Shown piece after piece: positions 23,636 through 53,456 of a stretch of 64,000 nucleotides of DNA (position 1 is its first letter; every line of letters begins with the position of its first letter). The stretch is from the NCBI GenBank assembly GCA_000091205.1, contig AP006502.2; one strand, 5' to 3'. This stretch comes from Cyanidioschyzon merolae (lineage: Eukaryota). The position numbers and the translations under genes are program-made. The notes under the pieces were generated by a model. That model saw only the letters and a list, made by a program, of their open reading frames with translations. It ran no database searches and had not been told where the DNA came from.

Positions 23636-24820
23636 ACTGCGAGCATCGAAGTTTGGAACATCTCTACCAATACGTGTTTTTTGGTCTGGATTGTCTCTGG
23701 TATTCAGGTTCAGCAGTAGGAATGTTTCCGATAGATTGGGGCATGGTGGTGGAATGACTTTATGATATCGCTGCGGGCCTGCGGGGGAAACGCCCTTGCC
23801 TCAACTTCTGGTTCATACTGCGGTGTTCCGGTGGTTGAACCACCGATTCAGAAGTACTTGCCTTGAACGCCAACACCCGAAATTGAAGATGTCAAACGCA
23901 ATCTATATTGCCACGTCTTTGTCAATCGATTCTACTCCATAGATCCCCTCAGAATGACCATCAAAGAGGCAACAGTTTGTGAAGTTTCCATGATACTCGC
24001 ACGAACATTGATGAAGAGACATGGATCGACACGGAATGAAGCAGGCTTCCATGGCAGACAGTCCACGTTGAATCGTACCTTGCCGATTTCGTACTGACAT
24101 GCGAATACTTAATCCATTTGGGACGTGTGCTCGTCTCGCTTCGTGAGGCTTCATTCGGCGTGCGCGGTAAACGCTTATATGGGTAGTCAAAGACACGCGA
24201 ACCGCTGGTTGTAAAGAAGAGCGAAGCGAGCATTCCAACAACATTGCGATTAGCGGCGATGCTGTCGTGTGTTCGCCTGCGACTCGCCGAGCGAACTGGA
24301 TTGTTCTCCAGTGCATCATTCATCAAAAGCGTTCCTCCTGGTTTTTCGTAATCATATGCCTGTATCCTGCTACGACATAACGTCGCTTTAGATCGCTCAA
24401 GAACGGTTATGGAGTTCTTTGCTGAGATCGGCGGTGAGCTGCTCTTCGCACCAGCCTATGCTCGCTGGTGAATCCACTCGATGGCGTCTTCGACGTGGGT
24501 ACCTGCCAATCTACATATCCACGGATCAATAAAAAGCATTCCTTCGCATCGATGAAATCGTTTTCCGAAAAGCTGTTCGGTACATGCACCAGCCCTGAGC
24601 TGTTGTGTTGCCGCTCTGCACATGCGCGAGATGCAGATCGTGACGTAAAAGATTGAAGGAATAGTGGATGTATACAAGGGAAAGGCGAGTTTCAATGGCT
24701 CTGTGCGTCCATAACGTCTTAATGCTGGAGGCGAAACCCGACACAGAGCGTAGGGACTACAGCTCTATTACCTTGGTGCATAACGGAAAAGGCGGTGAAA
24801 GATTCGGTCCCTGCAAGCAA

Positions 24821-26092
24821 GCAAGTTTAGAGCATTCGGGGAACTCCGAGCAGAGCACTGGCGGGGCTCGTTCACGATTTCTGGCGTCCTTGAAGGGTAC
24901 CGAAGAAAGTCTCTGGGGACAACGGAGACGGACGGAGTACCCATGTGCGTGCGTTCTGTGATACCAAGGCTTTAGTCGACAAACAAGACTCTTTTTCACC
25001 CGCTCAACACGCGTGACCAGAGGCAGTTTGTGGTGGACATCCAAATCGAGTTGAACGACACCATGACCGTCGCCGCAACTCCTATTCTAGAGAACGACAC
25101 GAAAGGCAGGAGCAGGAAGCAGATGCTGCTGCTGCTGCTGCTGCTGCTCAGCATTTCCAGCGCTCTACATGATCGAGAGCAGGGCTTCATCGACGGCAGG
25201 AAGCGCCCTAACAAATGAAAGGTCGGCGTCGCGACTTGGAGTTCGACTTCGACGCCCTGAGCACCTTTTCGAGCAAAGCGACACGCGCGGCACGCTTCAT
25301 GAAGGGAGCGTACGTCATCGTCCAAATGGCTTGTGCAGACGGCCTGTGGCAGTTCCTCGGATCGCACAAGCATCGTCTACCGCTTCGGTTGTGCGGAGGC
25401 AGGAAGCGTCCATTCGACTGCTCGATCCAAGAGCTGGGAACGCAAATGACCGATGAGTAACGTCGCTTGGTGGTAGCCAATGGCGCTGGACGTGCTGTGG
25501 CGCAGAAAGGCTGCACGCCTGCTTCTTGAACGACAGCATATGATAAACCATGAATCGATTCTGAAACCACACCCATGGATATGTTCAGGACGACGTGAAC
25601 GCATCACGAGCTCGGGCGCAAACAAAAACTGTTAGAGAAGAAGAGCGTGAGGCGGAGTCAGATGCACGGGATTGTGTACGGTAAGCTGACTTCACGACCG
25701 ATGGCGAGCTAATCGAAAATGAGAAGCATACTCTGGTGTGATTCTACTGCCAACAATGGGCGCAGGCAGTTTGTAGACCGCGACTCGATCGCCTCGATGA
25801 CCATTCGGGTATGTCCCATGCTTCCGGAGCGTTCAGCGGTATTGGCTCGAGCGAACGAACGGACGAACGAACATCCCGATGAGTCGTTGAGTGCTCCATA
25901 TGGATCATTTCCTGAAACGCTGCAGACTTTTGATGAAAATAACCAGCGTCCGGTCGACAGAGGATTCGATTCGCGCCTGCAGCTAGCCATGGTACCGCGC
26001 GTTTCACCAGTACTCCAGAGCTAAAGCGCGATCTCCATGTTTCCACTGGGAGCTGTTTTTCATGGGAGTTGTTGAACGAAAGCGATGGTGCA
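24821..26092. repeat. left arm of a 1.26-kb inverted repeat pair (reverse-complement of 38214..39474, ~98-99% identical)
   Basis: ORF-track proteins on opposite strands are near-identical (24996..25373- vs 38925..39299+; 25744..26106- vs 38201..38554+). Nucleotide homology stops sharply at 'GCAAGTTTAGAGCATTC' on the outer side and at '...GTTGAACGAAAGCG' on the inner side. Contains a (GCT)n microsatellite at 25125-25148. Confidence 0.9.
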
Positions 26093-27039
26093 TTACTCGA
26101 TATCACAGATTATAGACGTCCATGTCTATCAGGTTTATGCATGGGCCACATGCAGCAAGCAAGTCATCGAGGTTTCTGTTGTGCAAAGAGGTGATGGCTC
26201 CCAAGCAAACCGATTTGCGTATGTGTTGGTTTCTTCCGCGTGTGTGTGTGTGTGTGCCAGTCCATGGCTATGGCTGCTATTTATCCAGATGTCATGGTGT
26301 ATACCCCGTGGTACACAAGGATGAGCGCGACAATGTAAAATCTCTTACGTGCGAGACAAATGTCGTCCAAATGCGACCCAGAGAGTTCTCCATGACACCG
26401 TTATAGAATTGGATGGCTGGTGAACGGTTAAGGCCTTGCGGTCCGCCTGTGTACCTTTCAGATATTGTCTTTGCTGTCCGATACTGAAGCAGAATAGTTT
26501 CGGACGTAACCTCTAGACTTGAACGATAGCACTTCACGCGAACCTGTAGATAGTGTTTGATTCGTCGGCAAGTTCCTTGGTCCAGAGGAGTGGTCGAAAC
26601 CAAGCGAACATCGCCGGTCGCTAATGAAAGTACCGGTGATGATTTCCAGTTTCAACCTGTATCAAGCAGTGCCACCAGAATCTAGGCGATGCATCAGACA
26701 ACCGTTTCGAGCCTGACACGTGAGAGATAATGCTTTTGAACCTATCTTGTTCAGTGAAAATCGCACAACTTGGCTTGGGTGTGTTCTACTTTGAAACTTT
26801 CAAGCGCTTCCCTATTCCATGCCTCAGATATCCCTTGTGCCTTTGGTGCACTATGTATATGGCCCCAAGCGCATCTCTTGCATTCTTTTTACTTGGAAAC
26901 CCAGTAAGCGTTTCACGCTTCCCAGGGGTCATCGGCGACCCGGCTTTTGACGTTCCGTAAGACCTCTCCAGCATCACCTCCATAGAATCTTCCTTGGAAA
27001 CCTTCAGGGAATTTCCATACACTTGATTTGGCGATCCTT

Positions 27040-27190
27040 TTCGTCTTCCTTGGGGTATTTGACCTCCAGCGCATTGCCAGGATGAACTTTCCCGTGAAAA
27101 CCTTGACGTAACTCCCTCGCTTTGATTGATCCTGTTCGCCGATAAAGCGGTATTCGACCTCTAGCGCATCGGTTGGATGAACTTTACATA
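27040..27190. repeat. two-copy ~90-bp direct repeat 3' of AACS
   Basis: 'GGTATTTGACCTCCAGCGCATTGCCAGGATGAACTTTCC' vs 'GGTATTCGACCTCTAGCGCATCGGTTGGATGAACTTTAC'. Confidence 0.6.
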
Positions 27191-27212
27191 AACATCTCCA
27201 AGAAATTCCCTT

Positions 27213-29561
27213 TTACCCGCGTGCCAAATATTTCCTTTTGAGCTCCCGGTACGTTTCCAGGAGCTCCGGATCCATACAGGCATGTGTATTGTCCAGTGGT
27301 TCATCGTCGAGGATGCGTTTCACAGCGACTTCCATTTTCTTCATGTTCCTCGTATAGGGAATACCTGGAACAACGATGACCGTATGAGGAACATGCCGCG
27401 GAGATAACGACTGCCGCAGACGATTCACGATACGGGATCGAAGCTCCGAGTCTTCCAGTGGGCCCAGAGGAGCTTCGTGCGCCAGTTTCACAAAGAGAAT
27501 GATACGCACATCGTCGTGCCAACGTTGACCAGCTACCAGCGAGTCGCTAACCTCCGGCATGCGTTCGAGGACTGTGTAGAAATCAGCGGACCCAAGACGC
27601 ACACCACCGGGTTTCAGAGTGGCATCGCTCCGTCCCCGAATGATCAACGAACGTTCATGACCTGGTTCGCGAACCACGACGCGTGCATAGTCACCGTGGT
27701 GCCACACAGTCTCCCCAAAAGTTCTGAAGTAGGCCGAGCGATACATGGATGCATCAGTGGTGTCGTTCCAAAAAAAGAGCGGCATCGAAGGACAGGCGTT
27801 CGTGCACACCAACTCACCGTCCTGATTCTCGACCGGATGGCCGTGTGCGTCAAAGACCTGTACCCCAAGACCCAGCGCGCATGACTGTAACTCACCAGCG
27901 TACACTGCCCGACGCTGGAGTCCCAGTGCAAAGCACCCGTTGATATCCGTACCACCGGACATGCTCCAGTAACGGACGTGGCGACCAACGCGCGCCCAGA
28001 CGTATCGAAAGTTTGCAACCGTCGACGGTGAACCGGTCACCAGCACTGCCTGCAATCGCCCTAGAGACCATCGAGCTGGATGAACACCTAGCTGTTCTTG
28101 GATCTGCAGAAACTTGGCACCACATCCAAAATGGGTGACTTGCTCCTCTGCGACAATGCGCCAGAGGGCATCCTGCGGTGCATAGCCTGTCGACAATGAC
28201 GGATCGGTGTCGCGAGGTGTACTTTGTGTGTTCTCAGGGGCACCCGCTTCAACGCTTGCCGGGTGCTCCAGGGATGACCAAACCGCAGCGCCGTCGTAGA
28301 GAATCAGTCGACAGCCACGCGCTAGAGCTGCAACACTCCAGTTCCACATCATCCAACCACAGGTCGTGTAGAAAAAAAGCGTATGCTCTGGACCCATTGC
28401 GTAGTGCAGCAACTGCTCCTTCTCCTGGGTGAGCAGGATACCAGCACCCTGCGCCATGCACTTGGGTCTACCAGTGGTGCCCGAACTGAACATGGTCACC
28501 ACTGGATCTCGATCGAAACGAATACGTCGAAACGGGATCGCTGGCAATGCCTCATCGACAGCGGGCTCAGGTGATGCGGACGGAAAGCACTGCCAGTTGG
28601 GAGCGTCCAGGTGCTCGACTAGCGCGTCTCGCGGGCATCCGTACGGCACGATCCATACCGGAATGCCGGTGACAGCGTTCTCCTCATTGTTTTCGTTTCG
28701 TTTTTCTGTTCCCAGACGAGATGCAATTTTCTGTGCCTTTTTTAAACAGTCGTGGCGCTTACCTTTGAAGACAACAGCGTCCGCTGTAATCAGCAGCCGT
28801 GGTTGAAGTTGTCCGAATCGATCGACAGCGGCATCTTCACCAAAGTCAGGAGAGCAGGATGCCCAGATACCTCCCAGACTCGTCACTGCGAGCATCGCTA
28901 TGATCGTCTCGGGGATATTGGGGAGAAACCCCACCACGTGTTCGCCGCAACTGAGATGCAGTTGTTGTTCGAGCGCTTCAGCGACACGCGCAACCCATGC
29001 ATACAACTGGCGGTAAGAGAGCTCGCGGCGGGGAATGCCAGAGCCCGGCTCGCTGCGGAACACAATACTTGCCTGGGGATTACGCAGAATGTTCTCAGCG
29101 TAGTTCACTCGAATGTTCGGTAACCACCGGAGGCCGGTTATCGGCATGGTTCCCACAGTTGTGCGAGTGTGGGAATGTACAGGACTGCTGCTTTCGTTGT
29201 CGTTCTGGTTGGCGCCAGTGCCTATGCGCGTGCCTCTGCAAGCGGTCTCCAGCTGAAGTGTAGCTTCTCGGTTCGTGATAGGGACGTTGGCGTCCGTCAC
29301 CGGGGCACCAGTATCATCATAGAGACGAATACCCGCAAAATCGATGAATGTTCGGTAAAAGTCAGCGTCATGTTCAACTGAGAGCCGGTGCAGCCGCTCA
29401 AAGTCAAAGCTTTCGTGGTGCTGCACGGCCTCTTTGCCATAGAGTCGGCGCTCGAAAGCAGCTGCAAACCGCACCACAGGGTCGTCTGGTTGCCAAGGCG
29501 TGCTGTCTAATACCTGGTGGCCTTCGCACCAGACGTCCACAGCGTCCGCGTCATCGTCCAT
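27213..29561 (-). CDS. AACS: acetoacetyl-CoA synthetase (acetoacetate-CoA ligase, AMP-forming)
   Basis: 782-aa ORF with ATG = rc of 29559..29561. N-terminal 'WQPDDPVVRFAAAFERRLYGKE...ANVPITNRE' region as in acetoacetyl-CoA synthetases. AMP-binding signature 'MFSSGTTGRPKCMAQGAG', 'GWMMWNW', C-terminal 'GRSDATLKPGGVRLGSADFY'. Carries a low-complexity insert (EKRNENNEENA). Confidence 0.9.
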   Translation of the reverse strand: MDDDADAVDVWCEGHQVLDSTPWQPDDPVVRFAAAFERRLYGKEAVQHHESFDFERLHRLSVEHDADFYRTFIDFAGIRLYDDTGAPVTDANVPITNREATLQLETACRGTRIGTGANQNDNESSSPVHSHTRTTVGTMPITGLRWLPNIRVNYAENILRNPQASIVFRSEPGSGIPRRELSYRQLYAWVARVAEALEQQLHLSCGEHVVGFLPNIPETIIAMLAVTSLGGIWASCSPDFGEDAAVDRFGQLQPRLLITADAVVFKGKRHDCLKKAQKIASRLGTEKRNENNEENAVTGIPVWIVPYGCPRDALVEHLDAPNWQCFPSASPEPAVDEALPAIPFRRIRFDRDPVVTMFSSGTTGRPKCMAQGAGILLTQEKEQLLHYAMGPEHTLFFYTTCGWMMWNWSVAALARGCRLILYDGAAVWSSLEHPASVEAGAPENTQSTPRDTDPSLSTGYAPQDALWRIVAEEQVTHFGCGAKFLQIQEQLGVHPARWSLGRLQAVLVTGSPSTVANFRYVWARVGRHVRYWSMSGGTDINGCFALGLQRRAVYAGELQSCALGLGVQVFDAHGHPVENQDGELVCTNACPSMPLFFWNDTTDASMYRSAYFRTFGETVWHHGDYARVVVREPGHERSLIIRGRSDATLKPGGVRLGSADFYTVLERMPEVSDSLVAGQRWHDDVRIILFVKLAHEAPLGPLEDSELRSRIVNRLRQSLSPRHVPHTVIVVPGIPYTRNMKKMEVAVKRILDDEPLDNTHACMDPELLETYRELKRKYLARG

Positions 29562-31655
29562 GAGACGCGGCCTTCTCGTGACTAGGTCTGTTCCACGTGA
29601 GCGGACTAGACGGGTACCACGGTGAACGCCAGGGATCGCTCACCGATCCCGATGCAAAGACACACAGTCAGGTACAGACACGCACCCTAGTTTATTCCAA
29701 AGCCCAAGTGGCGCTTCGAGGAGCAACGCTATTTTCCCCAGCGCTTTGGTGGGTAATCTGCAGATGTTGTCCTTCACAAAAATTGGTATCTGATTTGAGC
29801 AGCGCCGAGCGCGCTCACGCGTTTTCGATTTCGATCGATGCTATCGCTTCTGGTACCGGGAAAATCTGCGCAACTCGATGAATGCTGAAGGCTGTTTCAC
29901 TTGGAAGGGCAAGCTTCGGTTGGCAGGCTCTGTGAACGTTGTCGCGTCGTCGCTATAGCCGCGTCAGATTACGATAGGCCATGGGGCTGCTCGTCCTGTT
30001 CGTGCCTTGAGATTTTCTGGACTTTATTTTGTAGATATACTGCCACGTCATTCACAGTGCAACAAGAAGCGCACACGGATGCATACACTGTTAAAAGATG
30101 CTCTATCGTCTTCTCTGAGTTGGTTAGTCGAATGTTCCGGGCTGGAATTCATGGCGTCAGCGCAATCAACACGATTTACGACGCCCTCGAATCAGCGTTC
30201 GAAACATACCCGATATCATCATCCAGTTCATACGTACAGGACTCCACTATTCTGCTTTCCCAATGTCTAGTATGCTCAGATCATGCACGCTTCAAGTTTT
30301 TGATGTTCCTGTCTCAAGGAATTAGGTGCGCGGGGCACTGCTCGCTGCTTGATGAACGAGGAAACAAATTCGACGTCGTTCCTTGACGACTTGTTTACAA
30401 GCTCATGCCAAACGTTCGCTCAACTTATCGCGTCAAATAATTGGTTTCGTTCTAAAGATAAAGCCTATTCTTTTTGTGGCCATCGACGAAACGGCATTCG
30501 ACCCCAGCAATGGTATCTCGGGAGGAATATGCCTCAAGACGATCCTGTCTCTTCTGTTTGCTTGATAACAAGTCTTGGACTCGGACTTGAGTCGTCGCAA
30601 CAATCGCACAAAGCGGAGCGTGCGTCACCATTTTGCATAACGGGAGCGTAGACGGATCAAATCTCTGGAACTCCTTCTCAGATTGGATTCTCCGTCCACT
30701 GCCTGATCCGTCAAGAACAATACTGTGTTGCACAAATCCTCTGTCGAATAGAGCAGCTCGTCGTTGCGCGTGCTGCGGACAGAGAACTACCCTGAGGCAT
30801 TACCACAAAGACGCCTGCGATCGCCGGTTGCAGCTTCGGGATCGAAAAACAGTGGTCGGCATGCGGGGTGCCTTCCGTATCCTCCCCGGGGATGTACTGG
30901 TCGGTGAGGCAAGCTTTCATGTGCCGCAGGCCGCCTTGGAGAAGGGAATATGGTGGGCGTATGGAAAAGCCTGGATCTACTCAAGCGGTATCGCTGTGCA
31001 AGTCGTACCGAGGCCGAATACAAAAAACATTCGCAGATGGCTGCTTTTGCATATGCATGAAATGCGCCGACAGCAACCACAACCTGCGAAATCGGGACGC
31101 TATGGCTGCCTTGAACATCAAACGATGTGTGCGGTAATGACGACGAGACACGCGAGGCTGGCGCGAGCGACCCTCATGGGGCATCCTCTCAGGCTAGAGG
31201 TGAACAAGGAGAAGCTGAAGCAGATGGCAAGCGGCCGATCGAAAAAGGCCAGGAGTGGTCTGTGAGTGAGTATTCCCTTGCCCTGCATGGCCGTGGGACA
31301 TTTTCGTTCCATGGAGCATGCTGGTCTGCAACCATTTTTTAGCTGGCAAATCGATTAAACAGGCCAGGGATCGCCGACTGTGCCCTTGGTATCAGCGCGT
31401 GGTGAAGCAAGCATCATTCCACGCCCTACTTGCAAATTCCATAACCCATACCTCTTCTCGGATATACTGGTCACTTTATTCGTTCTATCGTGCGCCGAGT
31501 ACCTGCCCTGATCATCCGCGATAGCGCCTATTCCGCCTGTGCAGTCGCTGCACGGAGAGAGAACGGCGTCGCCGTACCACTGAGGACGTCGGGTCGAGGA
31601 ACGCTACCCCTGATGGGGAGTTAGAGTACATAATCTTTCTGGGAGCCTGGAAGCT

Positions 31656-31684
31656 CTGCATACAGACCTATAGTCTGTATGCAG
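31656..31684. other. perfect 12-bp-stem palindrome (CTGCATACAGAC-ctata-GTCTGTATGCAG) near the inferred left end of Fanzor copy 1
   Basis: Read directly from the sequence. It could be a sub-terminal hairpin of an IS200/IS605-like end, or an unrelated terminator-like hairpin. Confidence 0.4.
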
Positions 31685-32211
31685 CGCGAAGCGATACGCA
31701 AGGAGATGATTGCGACCAGGGTGGTGCCCAAACGCAGCATACCCGCTCCTTGTACCAGAATAAACTGCGTTTCGAACGAGTTGCTCAGATCTCAATTAAG
31801 TAGCTACCGCTGGGGGAGCATGAAGCACTGCTGTGGCAGACACGTCCGGCTCGCGGGACATTTCGCCTAAAGAATAAACTTTCGGCAATCTGGACGCCGT
31901 TTTCCCCTTTTAATGTTTACCATAGAGGGGAGAGAAATTGTCATATCGTTGCTAGTTAGTCGTGAGTCTCTGTTCTTTGTTCTACATAGTGCGCTCGAGA
32001 CGCGCACCGGAGAGATCAGGCAGGCATGAGTTATGACGCGCTTGTCGCTGTTGAATGGAAACGCGATCCAAATCTTTATGATCTACCTGTAAAGTACACG
32101 TTGTATTTGCATTGAAGTCGTAGCAAACTGTAGTTTCAGTTGAATCGTGTTTCAGCGCTCAAGTAAGAATATTCAAGTGCTTTTTCGCGGTTTATAGCAG
32201 AAGCGTTCAAA

Positions 32212-34477
32212 TTGTGTTCTTTCTCGAAAGAAACTAAAAAAAGAAAGTTATGGAAAAGCAAGTGGAAGATCCTCGAGGGCCGGTACCGCCGGCTGCCAGA
32301 AGAAAAACAAAAAACAATATGGAGTCCAGAGGAACAGGAGAGGACGAAGAAGCAAAGGCAGAAGGCTCTACTTCAAAGGCTGCAAGAAAGACGACTGTAC
32401 GACGAGATGGTGGTGAAAGCCTTTCTTCTTGGACATATCAGGTATCCGTACATACAAAAATTGCGAGAGGCCATCAGAAACCGTGTCGATTCATGCTCCA
32501 AGAGTGTTCGCAAGGCTTCTTTAGGACTGATGCGTATGGCCGGGGATATATTCCGCGACGTGACGCACATGGAAACGGTCGAGATTCCGGACGAGTTTTT
32601 CGATAAGACGTGTATAGGTCAGCTGATACTTGGTACAGAGGAATCGCGGAAGGAAAATGGGCTAGTCCATGGCCTCCACGAAAAAAACATCCCTTTTACA
32701 GCTTCAACGGCGCTCGGTACAAGGGTGACCGGGATATTTACAGCTATGGGGCGATGAAGTACCTCACGAACCTGAAGAACCATTTGACAACGAACCTCGA
32801 ACGTTTCATGATACGCGCCGTGTTTGCACTCTACCCGGGCATCTCGCGCAATGGGAAAGGGGCGATGATCAACGGCATCACGAAAGATCGCAGGCATGAA
32901 GATGAGGTCGAATTCGTCGACAAGAAGGCATCAAACGCGTGCACGAATTAAGCTTCTGTAATCCGTGCGGCTGTACAAGAGCACCGTGCGGTACTGGGGT
33001 TGGCGTATCCAACAGACAAGATATCAGAGTTGAAAGAAGATAAGGAAAGATACTATCGCCTCATCCTGCGATATTTCGTGTTTCTGGACTGTGAACTCGA
33101 ACGCAAGGCGGAAATGAAGCTGAGTGAGGAAAAAATGAAGAGTGGGAGAGACGGAAGGCTGTCCTGTTGGGGAAGCGCTTCAAGGTCGGTGCGTTATGCA
33201 ACATCAAGTCACATTTTGTGAGTATCGATTCCGGCGTCCTCTACGGCATCATGAGGGAGATCTGTTCGGAGTTCGATGTTAGCAGGGAGGAATTCTCCCG
33301 GGAAAACCGGGAGACGTACTGGAAGAACATCTTCGATTTCAAACGTCTCAAAATGAGCGAGCAAAAGTTATTCACTGGGGTGATTGAAACCGATGGAGTA
33401 GCCATGTGTGTACGCTATCGGCGGTTGAAGAAAGATCGGCCAGTTCCGCCCTCGGCTGCGCCCGTCACGAAGGATGAAGAAAAGGAGGAGGCTGGTCCTG
33501 TGGCGCAGGAGGTGCAGGATGACGATCTTGTCGTTGGCGCGGCGAAGCATGAAGATGAGAAGGAGGCGGATCCTGTGATGCAGGAGGTGCAGGATAACGC
33601 CTTTATGGTTGGCGCGGCGAAGCATGAAGAAACGAAGAAGGCGGGTCCTGCGGTGCAGAAAGTGCAGGAGAACGACTTTGTCGTTGGCGCGGACCCCGGA
33701 AACACAAAAAGCATAACTATCGCAGCACCGAAGCGTGCAGAAGATGGTACTGATGGTAACTTGCGTCAGAAGGACATGCGCCTTTTGAGGTGCTCGAGAG
33801 CAAGATACTATCGAGAATCAGGTGTAATGAATGCAAGGAAGAAAATTGAGGCTTGGAACGAAGGAATGAAGGATCACCTGGAAGCTTTAAGCGAGGTGAC
33901 TAGACGAGGAGCGGACTTTGAGGCTTTTCGGAAATTCATGGAAGTTCGTGTTGCCCATTGGGATGCGCTGTGGGAGGAGTATACCAAGCCCCGCTGGGCT
34001 CGTTTGCGAATGAATCTATACTGTGGGAAGCAGCAGGCGTTCGCGAATTTTTTTAATGAGTTGAGCGCCCTGAAGGAGGATGAAAGTCAGAGGCTCGTCG
34101 TAGCGTACGGAGCAGGGCGCTGGAAGATCCGAAAAGGGTGTACACCAGCTCCAACAACGAGAACGTACAAGGAGTGTGCACGGCGTTTTGTTACAGTATC
34201 GATAGTTGAGTTTCGAGCATCGTATACACACCATGAGCTGGGCTGTATACTTCAGAGAGTGGAGATGGAAAAGTGCCAACGGAGCCCTGAGGATATAGCA
34301 AAGTACGGACCACTGACGGAGGAGCAAATGGAAAGGAGGGCAAAAATTCGTGGACTACTTGCATTAGTAAGTGCAACTCCCAACGGCACGAAACGTATGG
34401 AATTTGTGAACCGTGACTTTAACGCCGCTATCAATATACGGAGATGTGCGGTACTGGAGAAGAGACCTCCATCATAG
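32212..34477 (+). pseudogene. TnpB-like / Fanzor-type RuvC nuclease gene, interrupted (two frame changes plus one in-frame TAA)
   Basis: Frame A 32212..~32686 (MCSFSKETKKRKLWKSKWK..., Lys/Arg/Glu-rich and NLS-like) runs to an A7 homopolymer at 32681-32687. Frame B continues (KKHPFYSFNGARYKGDRDIYSYG...KKASNACTN) to TAA 32949-32951, after which the same frame stays open (ASVIRAAVQEH...). Frame C 33128..34477 carries RuvC-I '[16 protein letters not shown]', the Fanzor1-like RuvC-II region 'VVAYGAGRW...IVEFRASYTHHELGC' and RuvC-III 'EFVNRDFNAAINIRRCAV'. Copies 2 and 3 conserve all three parts at the amino-acid level. Confidence 0.6.
33482..33705 (+). repeat. 3 x ~76-bp in-frame tandem duplication inside the Fanzor ORF, immediately preceding/including RuvC-I
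   Basis: Units start at 33482, 33560 and 33635 and encode [26 protein letters not shown] / [25 protein letters not shown] / [24 protein letters not shown]. Only the third unit keeps the catalytic Asp. Copy 3 has a single unit. Confidence 0.85.
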
Positions 34478-34762
34478 ACAAGAGAGCACTTTATTGAACA
34501 ATCTGTCCAAGTCGAACTATATGAGAGAAAGTTGGAAGCAGTAGGAGGTGGCCGATCCAAGAAGGCGCGGAGGCATCTGCACAACTGTCGGAGATGATTT
34601 GTCCAAGGCGCGGTTGCCGCCACGACTGTCCACGCCCGACATCGTTCGAGTTTGAACAGCGTTTTGGAGGCGCGTAATCGATTCATTCGGTTCGCGTTGG
34701 AGCTTTTCGCGGCGTTTTCGTTTCGTGACTGCCGGACACGGGTTTTTGTGAGAAACAGCGAC

Positions 34763-34990
34763 ATGGCGTCACCAAAGAAGACTGCGACGAAAGCTGCTTC
34801 AGCACCGAAAAAGGCTGCGGCGAAAACGAAGGGCGAACGGAAACCAAACGCTTACCAAGAGTTTATGAAGGCAGAGAGTGCCAAGATTCGGGAGTACAAC
34901 AAAGCAAAAGGAATCGAAATGAGGCCACCTGATATTTTCAAGGAGTGTGCGAAGAGATGGAACGAGAAAAAGTCCAAGACAAAGGCGTAA
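34763..34990 (+). CDS. small Lys/Ala-rich DNA-binding-like protein (possible HMG-box-like, 75 aa)
   Basis: ATG at 34763 within ORF 34652..34990: MASPKKTATKAASAPKKAAAKTKGERKPNAYQEFMKAESAKIREYNKAKGIEMRPPDIFKECAKRWNEKKSKTKA. It has a histone-H1-like basic N-terminus and weak resemblance to an HMG-box helix pattern. It lies 180 bp downstream of the copy-1 right end. Confidence 0.35.
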   Translation: MASPKKTATKAASAPKKAAAKTKGERKPNAYQEFMKAESAKIREYNKAKGIEMRPPDIFKECAKRWNEKKSKTKA

Positions 34991-35340
34991 AGGCTCTGGA
35001 CTTGCGCGGTGGTGACGGTACTGGTGCTGGCGGCAGCGGGTCGTGCAGCTTGTAGTTCATAGTCGGTGACCTGGACGTTGACGGAGCGGTGGTTATGGTG
35101 GCAGTGCTCGTGGTTGAGCTCGGCCCGTTACCCGCCAACGCGCTGAGGGGTCAAAAAGCAATCGGGGCTGTCGGCGTGTCACCGTTACAAAGCTCTGCTG
35201 TTGCAGGATGCGTTTTCCCTCGCCAGTTTGGACAAGAAGCTGCCCTCATTTCGGGGCGCTGGAACCAGTGCGAGGCAGCGCCGAGGCCAGGAGCATATGT
35301 CGGGGACGTTCACAGAGCTGGTTTCGATTGAGGTTGTGAC

Positions 35341-35385
35341 GGTTGTGGTGGTTATGGTGCTGGTGCTGGTGCTGGTCGTGGTGGA
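35341..35385. repeat. (GGT/GCT)n compound microsatellite
   Basis: ggttgtggtggttatggtgctggtgctggtgctggtcgtggtgg. Confidence 0.9.
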
Positions 35386-36686
35386 ACTGTCAGGTTCGTG
35401 GAGGAATTTACTGGAAAATAAAAAATGGCAACATAAGATCCCGTATGTGTCTTTCAAGTCTTTCGATTCGGCTCTAACAGTGCTGTGTCTCCTCGGTGCA
35501 GTTTTCGCTGATGACGTAGATCCCTGAAACGCGCTGCAGAGGCCGTGGCGTTGCAGGCCTGCGACCCACTAGGTAGCATCTGTGTGTCGTCCATCGTGAT
35601 GCTTCCCTCGCTGCCAGAGACCATACCTTCCAGAGTGGACGCGATGAAGAGAGCGACGTGTGAGCGTGCGCAACTCTTGGGCTGTCAGCATTTTTGGTGT
35701 GTGAAAGTGTCAACCAGGCTCCCGGGTGAGGAAAATCTCTAAAATTGGTATTTCTTCCAGCAGAGGACACCCCAATCTGAGCTCCCTCACTGAACAGGAG
35801 ATTGACAGTGGCACGTGTGATACGGCTTTGCGGCCCTGGGTATCGGAGCACAAAATAGCTGCAACTCCTCGGCGTGCTTTTCCAGTGTGGGATTGATGCA
35901 TCGAAACTGGGTCCATCGGATGCGCGACGGCAACTCGTAACCAGGAGGCGATCTCAGTACCTCTTTAGACGAGTCAACATTCCGATGATCCCAGACCGGA
36001 CTTGCCGTCGAGAGTAGGCGCTTGATCGTTCCCGTGGCTCGCCAGGTGCCAAGCATACCGCGAGCGCTTCGCAGCGCTTGGCGCTCGCGGACCCGGTCGT
36101 CAACCGGATATGCCATGCGCCGGGGCATTTTTCCGCCGCGTGTCTGTTAACCACGGATAAGAGAGCGATATTTCGCCAATCGGAATGCATTGATTCATGG
36201 GCAAAGTAGATCGTTGCGTTTCTATGGATGATAGTGGTCGAGATCGGTCAGAGCTCCGCACGGACCGCGATCGATCGCTCCGATCAGCAAAGCGTGTTTG
36301 GAAGCCGGATCGTTGCCTCGGATCAAGCAATGCCCGATTCGATGATGTTTATTTCCGTCTTTAGACCAGAAAAGTGATGCTTGGAGAACCGCGGGGCTCC
36401 TGCGAAACATCGCGCGCTCGTTGTATAGGTAACCGCATAGGCACAGTGCTCTCAACCAAAGCTACGTGAAAATCATTCCGAAGCTCATGATGCCGCGCCC
36501 GGGGTTGCCGAGCTGCTGCGAAGTATGCCCTCTGCGGCAGACAATGGACAGTACAGCGTGACGACTCACCTGTAGTACGCCCAGCCGTATGGCGTCGTCT
36601 AAACTGGACTCTAGGATAACCAAAATTGGCCGCGTATAAGGAGAGCCTTACATCCGTGTCGTCATGCTCAGCTAGATGAAAACATT

Positions 36687-37544
36687 CTAGCCGTCAGGCC
36701 TGCGATGCAGCTCTGGATCAGCATCCGATACCGCTTGAAGGGATGATGGCGTCAAAGATTCCAGTTTCCGCAGTCGTCTTTGATGACCATTCGAAATCCT
36801 CTCTAGGATAGAATCGATCTGGTCAACTTCTTGGTCGCTTTCAGAACAAGCGTCCGCATCGCAAGCACGCATGATATGTCGACGACGACTCGATGCTGCG
36901 GATGCCAGGTCCCGGGCAGAGGCTCTTGATGACTCGCTGCTACTGCTTACGCTGGTGCTGACGCTGCAGACCTCACGGGCATGCCGCAGTCTCTGGCGTG
37001 TCCCCGCTGCACTTGAAGCGGAGATAGGACACGTCATGTGTGCTTCGTCTCGCGTGCTCGGCGTTGAAGCACAACTTGCGACAGACCTCGTCTCGAGAGC
37101 GTCTTCTTCGGCGAGTGCGGGTACTTCATGCTGCAGCTCGACACTTGTCGGGTCTCCAAAGCGCCCGTCCGGACAAGCGGTACCCACGTCCACGGCTTCA
37201 ACGTATTGCAGTACCGTACGCACTGGCAGCGATTCGATCTCAGCGATAAACTCTGCAAGCGACAGGCCAGGTGCGAAGCTCCTTTGCCAGTCTCGGAGCA
37301 ACCACAACAGCTCAAATAAGAAATATTCCACCTGCTCGTCGTTTTCAACGTTCAGTGCGCTGTCTTGGTGCAGCTGGTGCGTTGTGGCGAACCGAGCGGC
37401 CCGATGAAACAGAGCCGGAAGTCCGTCAGGGCCAGCAAGCAGCTCTGTCAGTTTCGCACGCGAGACAGCCAATGCGTTGCTTGGTCTCCCTGCCACACTG
37501 TTTGTTTTACGTTCTGAAAGTGTCTTCGCGGCACTCTGCACCAT
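36687..37544 (-). CDS. hypothetical protein with acidic Ser-rich C-terminus (~285 aa)
   Basis: ORF 36687..37673; I took Met44 (rc of 37542..37544, MVQSAAKTL...) as the start. No named motif. Confidence 0.3.
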   Translation of the reverse strand: MVQSAAKTLSERKTNSVAGRPSNALAVSRAKLTELLAGPDGLPALFHRAARFATTHQLHQDSALNVENDEQVEYFLFELLWLLRDWQRSFAPGLSLAEFIAEIESLPVRTVLQYVEAVDVGTACPDGRFGDPTSVELQHEVPALAEEDALETRSVASCASTPSTRDEAHMTCPISASSAAGTRQRLRHAREVCSVSTSVSSSSESSRASARDLASAASSRRRHIMRACDADACSESDQEVDQIDSILERISNGHQRRLRKLESLTPSSLQAVSDADPELHRRPDG

Positions 37545-38213
37545 ATTGCAAGGTAGCAGCGCCGAGCAACGTTTGCGCTTGAGCGGCAGCTCCCAGAAGT
37601 GACACTCAGGTTTACAGAAACAGAGGGCGCTTTGCACGCACACGCACGGATAAATACGCACGCAGACACGCACGAAATAAACTCAGACACGCAAACAGAA
37701 ACTTGGCGCCACGAAACGAATGCATCAGCGCCACGATCGCTTCGGCGCAATCGGCGATGGGCGCGCTGGTGCACTCGCTGGCATCTGTGCAGCGCGATCC
37801 GTCGCTTACCGGGTTCGTTAAAGGTAACGCGCAGCTGGTGGATGTAGTTCAGTTCATGGGTCTGAATGCTGACGAAAATTGTGCATTTCCAGGTCACTGG
37901 ATTTGTGTCGTGAGACCGCTGCATGTAGAAGCGGGTTGTTCATTCACGGCATCAAAAGCTCGTTGTGTGGTGAGTCGTTTTGCGCATTCAGCCTCGAAGT
38001 GTACGCTCGAATCGGCAACGGTCTGAGAAACATTTTGAGCTATGGGTGGACTCCAAAATCAGGCCAAGCAAAGTGTTTCTCTTCAAACGGGCATGCTGAG
38101 GCGCCATCACGAGCCTTCATAGGAGAGCCTCAAGTCGGGTACCGCGAGTAGAAGCCATGGAGATTTAGCGCGTTATTTTGGCTCTAGTCAGTGACGTGGA
38201 TTGAATGAAACAG

Positions 38214-39474
38214 CGCTTTCGTTCAACAATTCCCATGAAAAACAGCTCCCAGTGGAAACATATAGATCGCGCTTTAGCTCTGGAGTACTGGTGAAACGCG
38301 CGGTACCATGGCTAGCTGCAGGCGCGAATCGAATCCTCTGTCGACCGGACGCTGGTTATTTTCATCAAAAGTCTGCAGCGTTTCAGGAAATGATCCATAT
38401 GGAGCACTCAACGACTCATCGGGATGTTCGTTCGTCCGTTCGTTCGCTCGAGCCAATACCGCTGAACGCTCCGGAAGCATGGGACATACCCGAATGGTCA
38501 TCGAGGCGATCGAGTCGCGGTCTACAAACTGCCTGCGCCCATTGTTGGCAGTAGAATCACACCAGAGTATGCTTCTCATTTTCGATTACCTCGCCATCGG
38601 TCGTGAAGTCAGCTTACCGTACACAATCCCGTGCATCTGACTCCGCCTCACGCTCTTCTTCTCTAACAGTTTTTGTTTGCGCCCGAGCTCGTGATGCGTT
38701 CACGTCGTCCTGAACATATCCATGGGTGTGGTTTCAGAATCGATTCATGGTTTATCATATGCTGTCGTTCAAGAAGCAGGCGTGCAGCCTTTTTGCGCCA
38801 CAGCACGTCCAGCGCCATTGGCTACCATCAAGCGACGTTACGCATCGGTCATTTGCGTTCCCAGCTCTTGGATCGAGCAGTCGAATGGACGCTTCCTGCC
38901 TCCGCACAACCGAAGCGGTAGACGATGCTTGTGCGATCCGAGGAACTGCCACAGGTCGTCTGCACAAGCCATTTGGACGATGACGTACGCTCCCTTCATG
39001 AAGCGTGCCGCGCGTGTCGCTTTGCTCGAAAAGGTGCTCAGGGCGTCGAAGTCGAACTCCAAGTCGCGACGCCGACCTTTCATTTGTTAGGGCGCTTCCT
39101 GCCGTCGATGAAGCCCTGCTCTCGATCATGTAGAGCGCTGGAAATGCTGAGCAGCAGCAGCAGCAGCAGCATCTGCTTCCTGTTCCTGCCTTTCGTGTCG
39201 TTCTCTAGAATAGGAGTTGCGGCGACGGTCATGGTGTCGTTCAACTCGATTTGGATGTCCACCACAAACTCCCTCTGGTCACGCATGTTGAGCGGGTGAA
39301 AAAGAGTCTTGTTTGTCGACTAAAGCCTTGGTATCACAGAACGCACGCACATGGGTACTCCGTCCGTCTCCGTTGTCCCCAGAGACTTTCTTCGGTACCC
39401 TTCAAGAACTCCAGAAATCGTGAACGAGCCCCGCCAGTGCTCTGCTCGGAGTTCCCCGAATGCTCTAAACTTGC
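38214..39474. repeat. right arm of the 1.26-kb inverted repeat pair (partner of 24821..26092)
   Basis: See the left-arm entry; (CAG)n at 39150-39170 mirrors the left-arm (GCT)n. Confidence 0.9.
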
Positions 39475-39543
39475 GCGGAGCAACTAGCGGGAGCTAAATG
39501 AGCAGGCCATACAGTACAGCACACAAGCGTCTACGTTAGTGTG

Positions 39544-39879
39544 ATGAGCCTTTATCTAAAATGTGCGAGCAGCATCGAACACATGCTCGGGGAGGCTAAG
39601 GTGCTCGGTTTCGTAAACGGAGTCAGCCTTTCTCTGGAGGGCGCTTCACTGGAATACGAAGTAGCGCAAGATGGAAGCAAGGCGGGCATCACGTTCCAAT
39701 CATCCCTCGGATACAGTGTCCATTTGGCCGAGCCCGAGTTGAACGAGCTGAGCTTGCAGCATCTGAAACGACTCTCGCTCTCGTTGCGACATCTCTTCCG
39801 AACTCGCGAAAATCTCGAGCTCGTCGGTCACCAGCAACGCATTTGTCTCCATCGGCAGCCCAGTGATGTTTTCCATTAG
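39544..39879 (+). CDS. hypothetical small protein (111 aa)
   Basis: ORF 39541..39879 (GTG, then ATG at 39544). No motif recognised. Confidence 0.2.
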   Translation: MSLYLKCASSIEHMLGEAKVLGFVNGVSLSLEGASLEYEVAQDGSKAGITFQSSLGYSVHLAEPELNELSLQHLKRLSLSLRHLFRTRENLELVGHQQRICLHRQPSDVFH

Positions 39880-41485
39880 GATCCACTTTATTGGGCTAGA
39901 ATGGTGAGGCTAAAACGCGCACATGGTGCTCTTTTTGGAGTGTTTGAGATTGGCCTTCATATGATGTTTGAGGTCGGATCGACTTTTTCCTGGTACCTGG
40001 AGAGCGTTTCTTCCAGTCTCTGATCCCACTATCAGGCTGCACTGCATCTTCTGTGCCGAGCATCAGAGGTGCTGTTGCACGACGGTTTGGTCGACGCGTT
40101 CCAGAAGAATGTGAGCAGCTGTCAGCCCTGCATCGGAAACGAGTTTGAACCTACGCTTGACGAGGTGCAGCCAGGCGACTGAGGCTAGACGAGACATGCT
40201 CGAATCAGTAGCCACGAACATCTCTGTGGCATTCTACATCTTTCAGCCTCACGGATGCGAACGAATCGTCTATTGATCCGTAAGCGTAAAAATGACGGTA
40301 GATTGTAAAGAAGACGCTTTGGAGCAGACTGAACCGGGAAGAAGAAGTTCACACGAGGAGCAACACAGCGTAAATCTCAGCTGGGTACGTCTTGATAATA
40401 CTCGAGCGATGGAAAGTGGCATTCTCCAGGAGCAGAGCAAAACAGTTTGGCACGGGAAAGCCAAGAATTGTGCTTCGACGAAGGATATACTTTGAACAAT
40501 CCTGCTTTTTTTGCGATTTGTGATCGACCGCACGATTGCGTTGCTACAGCGGCTGATGTTGTCGTCGTTCTCGCTTGTCTCTTATGTACGCATACCGATT
40601 TTTCTTCTTTGAATACCCATATATAGACCCACCATTTATCCCAAATAGGGGGTCTTGTCAAGTGAGATGAACGCCAGCCACTCCTGCGATAAATGTACTC
40701 TTTTTCGTACGAAATCGACAATGCGTTGTTGAACACACAGGATTCTGGAATGGATGCGCAGTTTTTTGTCCATGCCCGTCCATAGCTCTTCATACCTGTT
40801 CGTGTCGACGCTATAAAAAGCTCATTTGCTGCTGCCTCATCTTGAGTATTTCGTAAAGAAACCTATGGAATAAGATCGATTGACATGTACAGTCGAGTCC
40901 ATAGAATTTGAAATGTTCTATTTCTGGGTGCGCTGTGTTCAGGTAAAGCACGACCCCGAGCGTGACTCATCCACCTGCAGGCCGTAGAATGACGAACTCG
41001 TAGAAGCACAACTGTTTTCCTGCAGCTGTCAGCGACAGCATCCAGTCTTTCAACGATGTTTCCCCACTTTCCAGGAAATACTTCTTTTGTTGAATACGTG
41101 CAAGAAAATCGAGTAAAAACGAAACATGGCATGCTTTAACAGGTATTTCAGAATCTACCGCTCCGCGTACCATGCTCTTCATCGACGACACCCGAGACTT
41201 ACTCGCGAAACGAACCCACCACCGAAAGGCCTATGCAGAAACGCCACACATGGATCAAACCGCACGCTCCGGGGAACGTCGGGCAGTTGCATTGGCGGAA
41301 CGCACACGAGCGTCGATAGAAGGACTCGAGTGTCTTCTCGCTGGTTACTGGGAGCGTGCTGTCGTTCGTCGGACTCGGGCCGTTCCTATTAATTCTTCTT
41401 CAGGAACAGTCCATTCATAAGTGATCCGAGCAACTCAATCGCTGCGTCGACCTCTTGAGTGTCGTTGAAACTTGCGCACTGTGCG

Positions 41486-41881
41486 ATGGCGAACAAGCCT
41501 CAATGGGAGCTGCTCGCCGAGGCGTTTGTCAACCACTACTACTCCGTGTTCGATACGGATCGTACTCAACTAGCAGCGCTTTACCGCGAAGTTTCGATGT
41601 TGACGTTTGAAGGCAACGCGTGCATGGGCGCGAGCGCGATCACCGAGAAGCTGGTGTCGCTCCCGTTTCAAAAAGTGCGCCACCAGGTTGTCACGTGCGA
41701 TGCGCAACCAGTTTTGCCGGAAAGTTTAAACGGGGTGCTGGTGTTCGTCAACGGCGACCTGACAGTGGATGACAGTAACCAGCCGATCAAGTTCGCCCAG
41801 GTATTTCATTTGTTACCGGATCAGGGCAACCCTGGAATGTTCTGGGTATACAACGACTTGTTTCGATTAAACTATGGATAG
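41486..41881 (+). CDS. NTF2: nuclear transport factor 2
   Basis: ATG at 41486 (MANKPQWELLAEAFVNHYYSVFDTDRTQLAALYRE...). Near colinear match to the NTF2 family: 'FDTDRTQL', 'SLPFQKVRHQVVTCDAQP', 'FHLLPDQGNPGMFWVYNDLFRLNYG'. Confidence 0.9.
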   Translation: MANKPQWELLAEAFVNHYYSVFDTDRTQLAALYREVSMLTFEGNACMGASAITEKLVSLPFQKVRHQVVTCDAQPVLPESLNGVLVFVNGDLTVDDSNQPIKFAQVFHLLPDQGNPGMFWVYNDLFRLNYG

Positions 41882-53243: not shown

Positions 53244-53456
53244 ATCTATTTCCTCTACACCGACACGTTGCTTTCCAGGGAAACGAGTGGGAAGATCGTG
53301 TTCCCTCACTCGCCTAATACAAAGCGCCAATGGCTGCAGAAGCGCTGGTGCGGAGTACGCCGCACGCACGCACCAAACGCCGTTCGAACTTGAACGACGT
53401 CGGGCGTGTACAGTAGTGGCGGGAAAACCGTCTTAGATTAGAAGTCTCCAACTGAC

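Follow-up and report, generated by a model that had tools for sequence, protein, structure and literature searches.

Gene content and synteny of the locus

Two near-identical inverted arms, each about 1.27 kb long (1271-1274 nt), lie in the 64-kb stretch of Cyanidioschyzon merolae DNA analysed here (the window) and enclose 12.1 kb between a WDR75-like gene and the gene for NTF2 (Table 1). The enclosed segment carries the acetoacetyl-CoA synthetase gene AACS, one copy of a dispersed 2.4-kb repeat with a 436-aa ORF, a small K/A-rich gene and the hypothetical gene hyp328. In the following, flank A denotes the sequence outside the left arm (WDR75 side), B1 the inside of the left arm, B2 the inside of the right arm and C the outside of the right arm (NTF2 side).

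Table 1. Features of the arm-bracketed locus, with the contigs in which each arm/flank junction was found.
Feature	Position in window, or contigs	Strand	Evidence and remarks
WDR75-like gene, left outer neighbour (flank A)	20618-23635	+	profile match and synteny
Short direct repeat TGGTGCATAAC (TGGTGCATWAC)	24774-24784	+	mate at 26086-26096; left arm only
Short direct repeat AGCAAGCAAGT	24816-24826	+	mate at 26154-26164; left arm only
Left arm (R)	24821-26094	+	high-identity core to 26084; WDR75/AACS spacer, between the 3' ends of both genes
(TGC/GCT)n microsatellite in left arm	25124-25148	+	8.3 units
Enclosed segment	26095-38203	.	12.1 kb of host DNA in ancestral synteny, with one lineage-specific insert (the 2.4-kb repeat); tblastx synteny
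AACS, acetoacetyl-CoA synthetase, 782 aa	27213-29561	-	AMP-binding Pfam; homologues so named
Dispersed 2.4-kb repeat, copy 1, 436-aa ORF ('Fanzor-like')	32303-34675	+	repeat search; tblastx synteny
K/A-rich gene, 76 aa	34760-34990	+	orthologue of 75-aa gene in sister lineages
Hypothetical gene, 328 aa (hyp328)	36687-37673	-	orthologue of 280/321-aa gene adjoining NTF2 in sister lineages
Right arm (R')	38204-39474	-	reverse complement of left arm; divergent hyp328/NTF2 spacer
(TGC/GCT)n microsatellite in right arm	39150-39171		7.3 units
NTF2, right outer neighbour (flank C)	41486-41881	+	profile match
A/R junction	L008-L012, L024
R/B1 junction	L001, L018, L020, L022, L037-L044		L036 is the L020 contig, L042 the L002 contig
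B2/R junction	L013-L017, L019, L021, L023, L047-L052
R/C junction	L014, L015, L025-L030, L032, L047-L052

AACS is a host gene with an orthologue in Cyanidiococcus (CCYA01G0156, 68% identity), and hyp328 shares 51% identity across 99 aa with its counterpart in a second sister lineage (L004). The interior content given in the original prediction holds for AACS, the small K/A-rich ORF and the hypothetical gene. The HMG-like character ascribed to the 76-aa product amounts to a weak, sub-threshold match to the HMG box (Pfam, E = 0.009), and the Fanzor label of the 436-aa ORF, which is based solely on a C-terminal NRDFNAAINI motif, found no support in Pfam, NCBIfam or PDB sequence searches.

Comparison with related species, which had been suggested along with the prediction, was performed with gene tables and tblastx against Cyanidiococcus (L003) and the second sister lineage (L004-L007). 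The order WDR75-AACS-75-aa gene-hypothetical gene-NTF2-Rpb8-Twinkle is the same and collinear in the window and in both lineages, and from CofD to Nrap gene order and orientation are identical in all three. The window therefore carries the ancestral orientation of the segment, being collinear with both outgroups. Neither of the two orthologous spacers contains arm-like sequence in the sister lineages, where they measure 476 and 619 bp compared to 3578 and 3786 bp in the window; copy 1 of the 2.4-kb repeat is likewise missing from its orthologous spacer. Because the sister lineages are collinear and lack the arms, the enclosed 12.1 kb represents ancestral host DNA with one inserted repeat.

Extent, junctions and copy number of the arms

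The inverted pair was recovered by a repeat search and MAFFT alignment of the 64-kb window, which confirm the near-identity of the arms. They differ by 14-16 substitutions (16 in a global alignment) and one 3-nt indel in a (GCT)n run; within the core (24821-26084) we count 14 substitutions at 1261 compared sites, i.e. 1.1%. The terminal 10 nt of the left arm (26085-26094) match the right arm at only 7 of 10 positions, which is why the right-arm start originally given, 38214, corresponds to the end of the high-identity core; we extend the right arm to 38204. The (TGC/GCT)n microsatellite varies in length between strains, and several wild contigs end at it (L013, L016, L017, L022, L039, L045). 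Past both arm ends the flanks show no significant similarity, either in local alignments compared with shuffles or in the ungapped register, and the arm boundaries are thus as sharp as first described. The window holds no further copy of the arm.

The arm termini read GCAAGTTTAG...GAAAGCG(ATGGTGCATT). They show neither TG..CA ends nor a terminal inverted repeat (TIR), and do not match Helitron-like termini (5'-TC...CTRR-3' with a hairpin). No direct repeat adjoins either arm or the whole 14.65-kb unit, whose flanks, ending in CTGCAAGCAA on the left and beginning with GCGGAGCAAC on the right, share none. The absence of TG..CA termini and of target-site duplications (TSDs) is therefore upheld, with one nuance: the left arm is accompanied by short direct repeats of 10-11 nt (Table 1), in a number reached by 3 of 2000 shuffles. 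These are offset from the arm ends rather than abutting them, and the right arm has no counterpart of them and no TSD. At the outer junction of the left arm they may represent junction microhomology or a target duplication.

As anticipated, the arms contain no recognisable coding motif, since no arm ORF has a Pfam match. The arm itself has no match in Rfam and gives no unusual RNA fold or RNA-structure signal, and a search of 5.8 billion protein clusters returned no homologues of its ORFs outside this species. Pfam transposase or recombinase domains are absent from every ORF of the arms and the interior, NCBIfam likewise gives none for the 436-aa ORF, and no domain of a dedicated invertase or recombinase was found near the segment. 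A site-specific invertible DNA switch was considered and rejected, as the repeats are 1.27 kb long rather than short sites and a recombinase domain is missing.

Each of the four arm/flank junctions turns up again, at 97.4-99.6% identity, in numerous independent assemblies from metagenomes, JGI, ENA and Logan (Table 1), which shows the duplication to be real. Each junction is found at a constant position wherever it was sampled, including strains up to 2.6% diverged from the window (junctions pooled across strains). Many contigs stop about one k-mer past the final SNP that tells the arms apart, the behaviour expected of a two-copy repeat. The unitig-type contigs L016, L017 and L038 extend 940-1190 nt into the arm without this break, a hint of heterogeneity in copy number or haplotype. 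B1- and B2-linked contigs are the only ones to match a 29-nt pattern from the inner end of the arm, and look-ups of the arm ORFs returned A/C and B1/B2 contexts only. About 45 wild contigs yielded no third context or third copy, and the population assemblies no empty site. The arm is a low-copy sequence and not a dispersed repeat family, as seen directly in these contigs and the window and indirectly for the remainder of the source genome.

Exchange between the arms and orientation of the segment

Sequence exchange was assessed with haplotypes located within read length of the junctions. At the inner end, the six-site haplotypes GGATGA and CAACCG (<=80 nt from the junction) are each linked to B1 and to B2, and at the outer end both CC and AT occur in linkage with A as well as with C. 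Across strains the arms do not group by position, and their divergence within a genome (1.1-2.35%) is not above that between strains; the two arms of the window have common alleles unlike those of most wild arms. The presence of junction-near haplotypes on both arms together with the lack of clustering by position demonstrates that the arms exchange sequence continually, by gene conversion and/or crossover. Efficient homologous recombination and gene targeting have been reported for C. merolae (PMC3764038, PMC5348525).

Crossovers between the arms would invert the enclosed segment and disrupt no gene. Contigs whose junction pairs correspond to the inverted isomer exist: the combination A-R-B2 occurs in five samples (L008-L012) and the reciprocal C-R-B1 in one 19-kb contig (L035), next to the window-type C-R-B2 in seven samples (L014, L015, L047-L050, L052; short-read contigs through the repeat). 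These contigs raise the possibility, which we hold tentatively, that the 12-kb AACS-to-hyp328 block is present in both orientations in wild hot-spring populations and that recurrent crossovers between the arms, whose similarity gene conversion maintains, re-invert it. The arms may then be the fill-in of an original staggered-break inversion, and the locus would be an algal counterpart of the yeast chromosome XIV flip/flop. The haplotypes common to both arms at both ends fit such a scenario, for which precedents are found in yeast (PMC9731477) and in recurrent human inversions via inverted repeats (PMC3961182). However, all contigs concerned are short-read assemblies through a 1.27-kb repeat, where path ambiguity is possible; their arm SNP mosaics vary from contig to contig, and the A-R-B2 contig L009 is chimeric at its other end. 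Moreover, 12 of the 13 contigs that fully cross an arm (14 with L051, which ends just before the inner end) leave via B2 whatever their entry side, much as under a path bias; contigs of the A-R-B1 type did not turn up, and the window itself is ancestral in orientation. The predicted capacity of the arms to mediate inversion is thus supported by suggestive contigs that fall short of proof, and flip-flop inversion is plausible but unproven.

Origin of the arm pair and related systems

We consider it likely that the arms constitute an inverted segmental duplication confined to this species, in which 1.27 kb of DNA, apparently non-coding, is present in two copies, and that they are neither a transposon nor its ends. 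Structures of this sort are already known, and the locus reveals no new type of mobile element or mechanism. One of the copies, probably that on the right, would be native spacer DNA, while a repair or replication event, rather than transposition, probably gave rise to the other. Candidate routes include microhomology-primed templated copying or the fill-in of a staggered break, as suggested by weak junction features, i.e. the 6-11 nt repeats at the left arm only. Gene conversion via homologous recombination would then homogenise the arms and hold them at about 99% identity. A recent inverted segmental duplication was among the possibilities put forward originally. Its two copies, the lack of transposon hallmarks and the absence of homologues agree with our data, but its recency is doubtful because the junction positions are constant even among the diverged strains. 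Exchange between the arms accounts better for their high identity than a recent origin does.

Two other origins had been proposed with the original prediction. The insertion, on two separate occasions, of an unknown mobile element that is non-autonomous, lacks TIRs and TSDs and is perhaps mobilised in trans as suggested for CMe-1A/TE-N2_CMe would account for two sharp-ended intergenic copies that are missing from the sister lineages, and C. merolae has documented TIR-less repeats without clear TSDs (PMC3627910). The 11-nt direct repeat near the ends of the left copy points in the same direction, but 6 nt of it are shared with the right copy, and with a mate 60 nt past the arm end it is no clean TSD. 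Given that all population data contain two contexts only and no empty site, that the arm resembles neither the three Fanzor-like copies nor anything else in the window, and that its ORFs have no relatives, we judge this origin unlikely. A composite element, a 14.65-kb transposon whose long TIRs would be the arms and whose cargo would include AACS and Fanzor, has in its favour only the geometry of inverted arms around genes, one of them within a transposon-like repeat. It is refuted by gene order: the genes inside the arms and both outer neighbours have the order and orientation of two armless sister lineages, and the enclosed 12.1 kb, being ancestral, is therefore not cargo. As there is also no TSD around the unit and no transposase or recombinase domain in its ORFs, we regard a composite element as highly improbable.

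The arm could also be the duplicate of a small gene restricted to this species, such as the 101-aa ORF (25719-26024) together with its promoter. Both arms and 23 wild contigs carry this ORF intact and without differences, although conservation between contigs is biased by the exact-match look-up, and it falls where the arm varies least (low diversity at 25500-26014). Its codon score of 0.058 is the best among the arm ORFs and near that of hyp328 and of weak real genes, but far below the 0.14-0.24 of conserved genes. It has neither homologues nor a domain, older gene callers choose a 68-aa version, and SNPs in the neighbouring 81-aa ORF affect the third codon position in only 2 of 12 cases; an orphan gene is thus a slim prospect. 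The false duplication of one arm in the source assembly, for which only the general risk of repeats in assemblies can be put forward, is refuted, considering that all four junctions occur in many independent assemblies from differing samples and pipelines and that the arms differ by 14-16 substitutions.

Among the closest known counterparts of the segmental duplication that we favour is the flip/flop region of yeast chromosome XIV, in which 24 kb with 15 genes lie between the homogenised copies of a 4-kb inverted repeat (Salzberg et al. 2022, PMC9731477). Two functional sporulation genes make up that repeat, and PCR and assemblies established both orientations (PMC9731477). Common to both loci are a gene block between near-identical inverted repeats, homogenisation within strains and an inversion that would break no gene; in contrast, the algal arm is shorter, at 1.27 kb, has no recognisable gene, and its second orientation is suggested by short-read contigs only. 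In humans, inverted low-copy repeats of 1.6-24 kb flank segments of 5-226 kb (2014, PMC3961182). SNPs common to orientations or arms, which indicate recurrent recombination and gene conversion, are found there as here, whereas the human cases stem from a diploid, sexual, repeat-rich genome and the alga is unicellular with a very compact genome and few repeats. The Xq28 FLNA-EMD inversion is a further human case of inversion via inverted low-copy repeats.

Inverted duplicates at inversion breakpoints, explained by a staggered-break model, include the Anopheles 2Rj segmental duplications (PMC1952172). Similar breakpoint duplications occur in Drosophila. Our locus resembles these in having inverted, non-mobile duplicates on either side of a segment and in lacking TIRs and TSDs. 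The model implies a segment inverted relative to the ancestor, whereas the window is collinear with both outgroups and a second re-inversion would be needed. With composite or long-TIR cargo transposons the locus shares geometry only, since TSD, transposase and mobility are missing and the interior is syntenic host DNA. The C. merolae repeats CMe-1A, a Fanzor1 element, and TE-N2_CMe are TIR-less and number about 70-150 copies, which are roughly 80% identical to a consensus (Bao & Jurka 2013, PMC3627910). The arm belongs to the same algal group and also has no TIRs or clear TSDs, but it differs in having two copies at 99% identity and no sequence in common with the Fanzor-like copies of the window.

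Few eukaryotic genomes are as compact and as poor in repeats as those of the Cyanidioschyzon type, which also recombine efficiently by homology. A clean two-copy inverted repeat in a compact red-algal genome constitutes a small natural experiment on repeat exchange, and those using Cyanidiales as a chassis should know the locus. If the inversion is real, it would offer a simple marker with which recombination in wild Cyanidiales, and possibly their clonal structure or cryptic sex, could be followed.

Extent and content of the inverted arms

A repeat scan of the window, MAFFT alignment with 100-nt flanks and global alignment all confirm the predicted pair of near-identical inverted arms. The repeat scan yields two adjoining matches, I6 and I2, separated by a 3-nt indel. 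Identity is near-perfect with an abrupt onset at 24821/39474 and decays across the last 10 nt (26085-26094/38204-38213). Arm against arm, 16 substitutions and one (GCT)n indel are counted, and the arm core (24821-26084) carries 14 substitutions in 1261 sites. The sharp boundaries claimed for both sides hold as well, as the flanks past both ends are unrelated. In local and ungapped tests flank-to-flank similarity does not exceed that of shuffles, and an older, larger duplication reaching past the arms is therefore rejected. A 25-nt tail at the inner end, with an apparent identity of 65%, requires a gap and is not significant. The arms terminate in GCAAGTTTAG...GAAAGCG; as predicted, TG..CA was not found at the arm ends, nor was a terminal inverted repeat, and no direct repeat abuts either arm or the 14.65-kb unit.

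Coordinates of the arms, repeats, spacers and a doubtful ORF in the window
Feature	Position	Strand or orientation	Remark
Arm pair match I6	24821-25145 / 39150-39474	inverted	repeat scan of window
Arm pair match I2	25127-26094 / 38204-39171	inverted	repeat scan of window
(GCT)n microsatellite in arm	25124-25148 and 39150-39171		one-unit difference between arms
2.4-kb dispersed repeat, copy 1	32303-34675	+	
2.4-kb dispersed repeat, copy 2	53364-55736	-	
2.4-kb dispersed repeat, further copy	61829-63749 and beyond	-	
WDR75/AACS spacer	23636-27212		3578 bp here, 476 bp in Cyanidiococcus (L003)
AACS/75-aa spacer	29562-34759		about 5.2 kb here, 1.2 kb in L003
hyp/NTF2 spacer	37674-41485		3786 bp here, 619 bp in L003
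224-aa ORF	42185-42859	+	between NTF2 and Rpb8

None of the ten arm ORFs has a Pfam match, in line with the original prediction that the arms hold no recognisable coding motif. Their codon-usage scores are near zero except for a 101-aa ORF (0.058), compared with 0.14-0.24 for conserved genes and 0.05-0.07 for two weak real genes, the 328-aa hypothetical gene hyp328 and a 76-aa gene. No relatives of the 101-aa and 81-aa arm ORFs outside the species occur among 5.8 billion clusters, and an exhaustive HMMER scan of 1.84 billion representatives returned only the species' own fragment and one spurious match, to a protein with nine tandem repeats that inflate the score. The arm contains no Rfam family at gathering scores (sub-threshold chance matches only at E <= 1) and no tRNAs, and its predicted RNA folding is not unusual on either strand (z-scores -1.2 to +1.5). 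It has no exact match in IMG/VR that would indicate a viral origin, and no similarity to the three Fanzor-like copies or the rest of the window (blastn, word size 7). Diversity among wild contigs peaks around the microsatellite (25000-25300) and is low in 25500-26000, without exceeding what is seen in the unique spacers nearby. A 306-nt stretch of the arm (25709-26015) is free of SNPs. The microsatellite itself varies among these contigs by up to four or more units and is a frequent break point of assemblies.

The enclosed block in sister lineages

The neighbours of the arms are long, intron-less eukaryotic housekeeping genes encoding a WDR75-like beta-propeller, NTF2 and an AMP-binding acetoacetyl-CoA synthetase (AACS). 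The window AACS is 68% identical to Cyanidiococcus yangmingshanensis CCYA01G0156, 67% to P0003 of a second sister lineage and 51% to that of Cyanidium caldarium. Since the sister-lineage proteins P0002 and P0003 are 78% identical to each other, the window derives from a Cyanidioschyzon-like red alga that forms an outgroup to both. We compared the orthologous loci of Cyanidiococcus (L003, GCA_026122185.1) and of the second lineage (L004-L007), which contain Twinkle, Rpb8, NTF2(-), a hypothetical gene of 280/321 aa(+), a 75-aa gene(-), AACS(+), WDR75(-), RING, hydrolase and CofD. By tblastx the window is collinear with both lineages from CofD (11.5 kb) to Nrap (48.6 kb), with the relative orientation of every gene kept. 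Thus, the 12.1 kb between the arms is an ancestral host block and is not inverted in the window. The gene block is present and the arms are absent in both lineages, where tblastx gave spurious matches of ~22 bits only; the spacer comparison identifies the arms as additions to two spacers. This synteny rules out a composite transposon with cargo and refutes the proposal of a large composite element. Spacers are 3-8 times longer here than at the Cyanidiococcus loci, of which the arms and the Fanzor-like repeat explain only part.

The AACS/75-aa spacer separately acquired copy 1 of the 2.4-kb dispersed repeat, a copy that the sister lineages lack in their orthologous spacer. The repeat, present three times in the window, has a 436-aa ORF with a 25-aa unit (75 nt) repeated three times in tandem and, towards the C terminus, the motif NRDFNAAINI. 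The label 'Fanzor', originally given to copy 1, found no support in Pfam, NCBIfam and PDB sequence searches; for C. merolae, the TIR-less Fanzor1 element CMe-1A has been reported at about 150 copies (PMC3627910). A second inverted pair, made up of copies 1 and 2 (95-98% identical, 18.7 kb apart), is interleaved with the arms, copy 1 lying inside them and copy 2 outside, and recombination at both pairs could produce overlapping inversions. The 224-aa ORF, annotated as a gene in all metagenome contigs, lacks a recorded Pfam match and a counterpart in the sister lineages' gene tables, scores ~0 for codon usage and is probably not a real gene.

Junctions and sequence exchange in wild strains

Exact-protein look-ups and one metagenome pattern scan retrieved ~45 same-species contigs that match the window at 97.4-99.6% identity; they stem from JGI metagenomes and from ENA MEGAHIT and Logan assemblies. 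The window's own AACS, WDR75 and left-arm 81-aa ORF have no exact match in these collections, from which its strain or assembly is thus absent. Mapped onto the window, these contigs reproduce each of the four arm/flank junctions several times at exactly the window positions, which provides assembly support for the junctions. We designate the flanks A (WDR75 side), B1 (AACS side), B2 (hyp328 side) and C (NTF2 side). Many contigs end about one k-mer past the last SNP distinguishing the arms; ends lie at ~25892 (L001, L018, L020) and ~38405 (L019, L021), C-side contigs stop 64 nt inside the arm and Logan B1 contigs at 26050-26086. This break pattern is the behaviour of a two-copy repeat. Neither a third context of the arm nor an empty site was found among the ~45 contigs. 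Together with the reproduced junctions and the lack of ORF relatives, this marks the arm as a genuine sequence particular to the species and, in these contigs, of low copy number, whose four junctions keep their positions in all samples that cover them.

Three unitig-type contigs, L016 and L017 (Logan) and L038 (ENA MEGAHIT), run 940-1190 nt from unique flank into the arm (38204-39171 and 24902-26094) past the expected two-copy break, which does occur at the edge of the arm in Logan contigs L040-L045. The longer runs may reflect heterogeneity in copy number or haplotype, coverage, or the cleaning of assembly graphs. Nine contigs ending at 37768-37828 raised the possibility of a repeat ~400 nt longer in some strains, which we rejected because A-linked and C-linked contigs share one B2 haplotype; a strain-level SNP cluster at 37802-37852, just upstream of hyp328, explains these breaks.

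Single reads or k-mers phase the sites that lie no more than 80 nt from a unique flank, so that these can be trusted even when the assembly is built from short reads. Six such sites at the inner end (26015, 26023, 26035, 26036, 26055, 26068) form two haplotypes, each present on both arms: GGATGA with B1 (L035, L038, L039) and B2 (L008-L012, L016, L017, L023, L047-L050, L052), and CAACCG with B1 (L037) and B2 (L013, L014, L019, L021). Likewise, at the outer sites 24885/24888 both CC and AT occur with either flank, A or C. Five alleles common to the two window arms (25108 A, 25346 G, 25402 G, 26015 C, 26023 A) are not those of most wild arms, irrespective of the flank to which the latter are joined. 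The two arms of a single genome or series of samples diverge by 1.1% (window), 2.1% (samples 3300009503 and 3300005573) and 2.35% (L024 against L025, from the adjacent samples 3300050747/748); the 'same' arm differs by 0.9-2.0% between strains, and divergence within genomes is no greater. Arms do not group by position, as the C-linked L014 resembles the left arm of the window more closely than the right one. The arms thus seem to be kept similar through crossovers and/or gene conversion in patches; C. merolae is well known to carry out homologous recombination efficiently (PMC3764038, PMC5348525). Since the junctions are unchanged in strains differing by up to 2.6% in unique DNA (L037), the duplication seems to predate that divergence. 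Of the proposed recent inverted segmental duplication, the duplication stands; recency is not needed for 99% identity.

Orientation, origin and known counterparts

Thirteen contigs traverse the whole arm (R). Seven follow the window-type path C-R-B2 (L014, L015, L047-L050, L052; L051 nearly), five the path A-R-B2 of the inverted isomer (L008/L046, L009-L012) and one, the 19-kb L035 running from Twinkle and NTF2 through the arm into AACS, the reciprocal inverted junction C-R-B1; the window-type A-R-B1 was not recovered. At face value this suggests that both isomers exist in nature, but four points call for caution. That such arms can mediate inversion, as predicted, agrees with these inverted-isomer junction pairs and with the exchange between arms, but short-read paths are ambiguous. 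The arm core exceeds any insert size, SNP mosaics vary between contigs of the same type, and 12 of the 13 crossing contigs (13 of 14 with L051) exit through B2 whatever the entry side. Part of the B2 excess stems from the query, because older pipelines call the ORF as 68 aa and the 101-aa look-up missed B1-linked contigs. Moreover, in L009 the sequence passes at window position 34739 into the interior of an M18 aminopeptidase-like ORF that does not belong to the locus. We therefore regard recurrent inversion, with the block present in both orientations, as a tentative reading that is somewhat doubtful. The join in L009 (8949-9505, JGI 3300050364) lies 21 nt upstream of the ATG of the 76-aa gene, and its fusion to the M18 aspartyl-aminopeptidase-like ORF is either an assembly chimera or a population rearrangement.

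With regard to origin, clean target-site duplications were not found at the arms. Short direct repeats near the junctions are confined to the left arm: AGCAAGCAAGT spans the outer junction (24816-24826) and is found again 60 nt past the inner end (26154-26164), and TGGTGCATAAC (24774) recurs as TGGTGCATTAC across the inner junction (26086); such direct repeats were reached by only 3 of 2000 shuffles. GCAAGT, six of the 11 bases of AGCAAGCAAGT, is also the sequence with which the right arm begins. As an alternative to the templated repair outlined next, a staggered-break inversion with later re-inversion might have created the arms. One reading of these repeats is templated repair, in which the right copy would be native spacer and the left copy would have been synthesised from it during break repair, primed on the GCAAGT microhomology and bringing ~60 nt of filler.

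Measured against composite and TIR transposons, MITE-like and Helitron-like elements and recombinase-driven switches, the arm pair falls short on every defining test, and it differs in copy number from the TIR-less CMe-1A/TE-N2_CMe repeats of C. merolae (PMC3627910). It resembles inverted low-copy repeats that drive recurrent inversions with concerted evolution. The closest case is the flip/flop region of yeast chrXIV, 24 kb with a homogenised 4-kb inverted repeat, for which both orientations were demonstrated by PCR and assemblies (PMC9731477). Another near counterpart is the class of human inversions that inverted repeats mediate (PMC3961182). The pair is thus a real but ordinary feature of an already known type. 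What is gained is the exclusion of the 'cargo' idea, population evidence of sequence exchange between the arms and a testable hint of inversion polymorphism.
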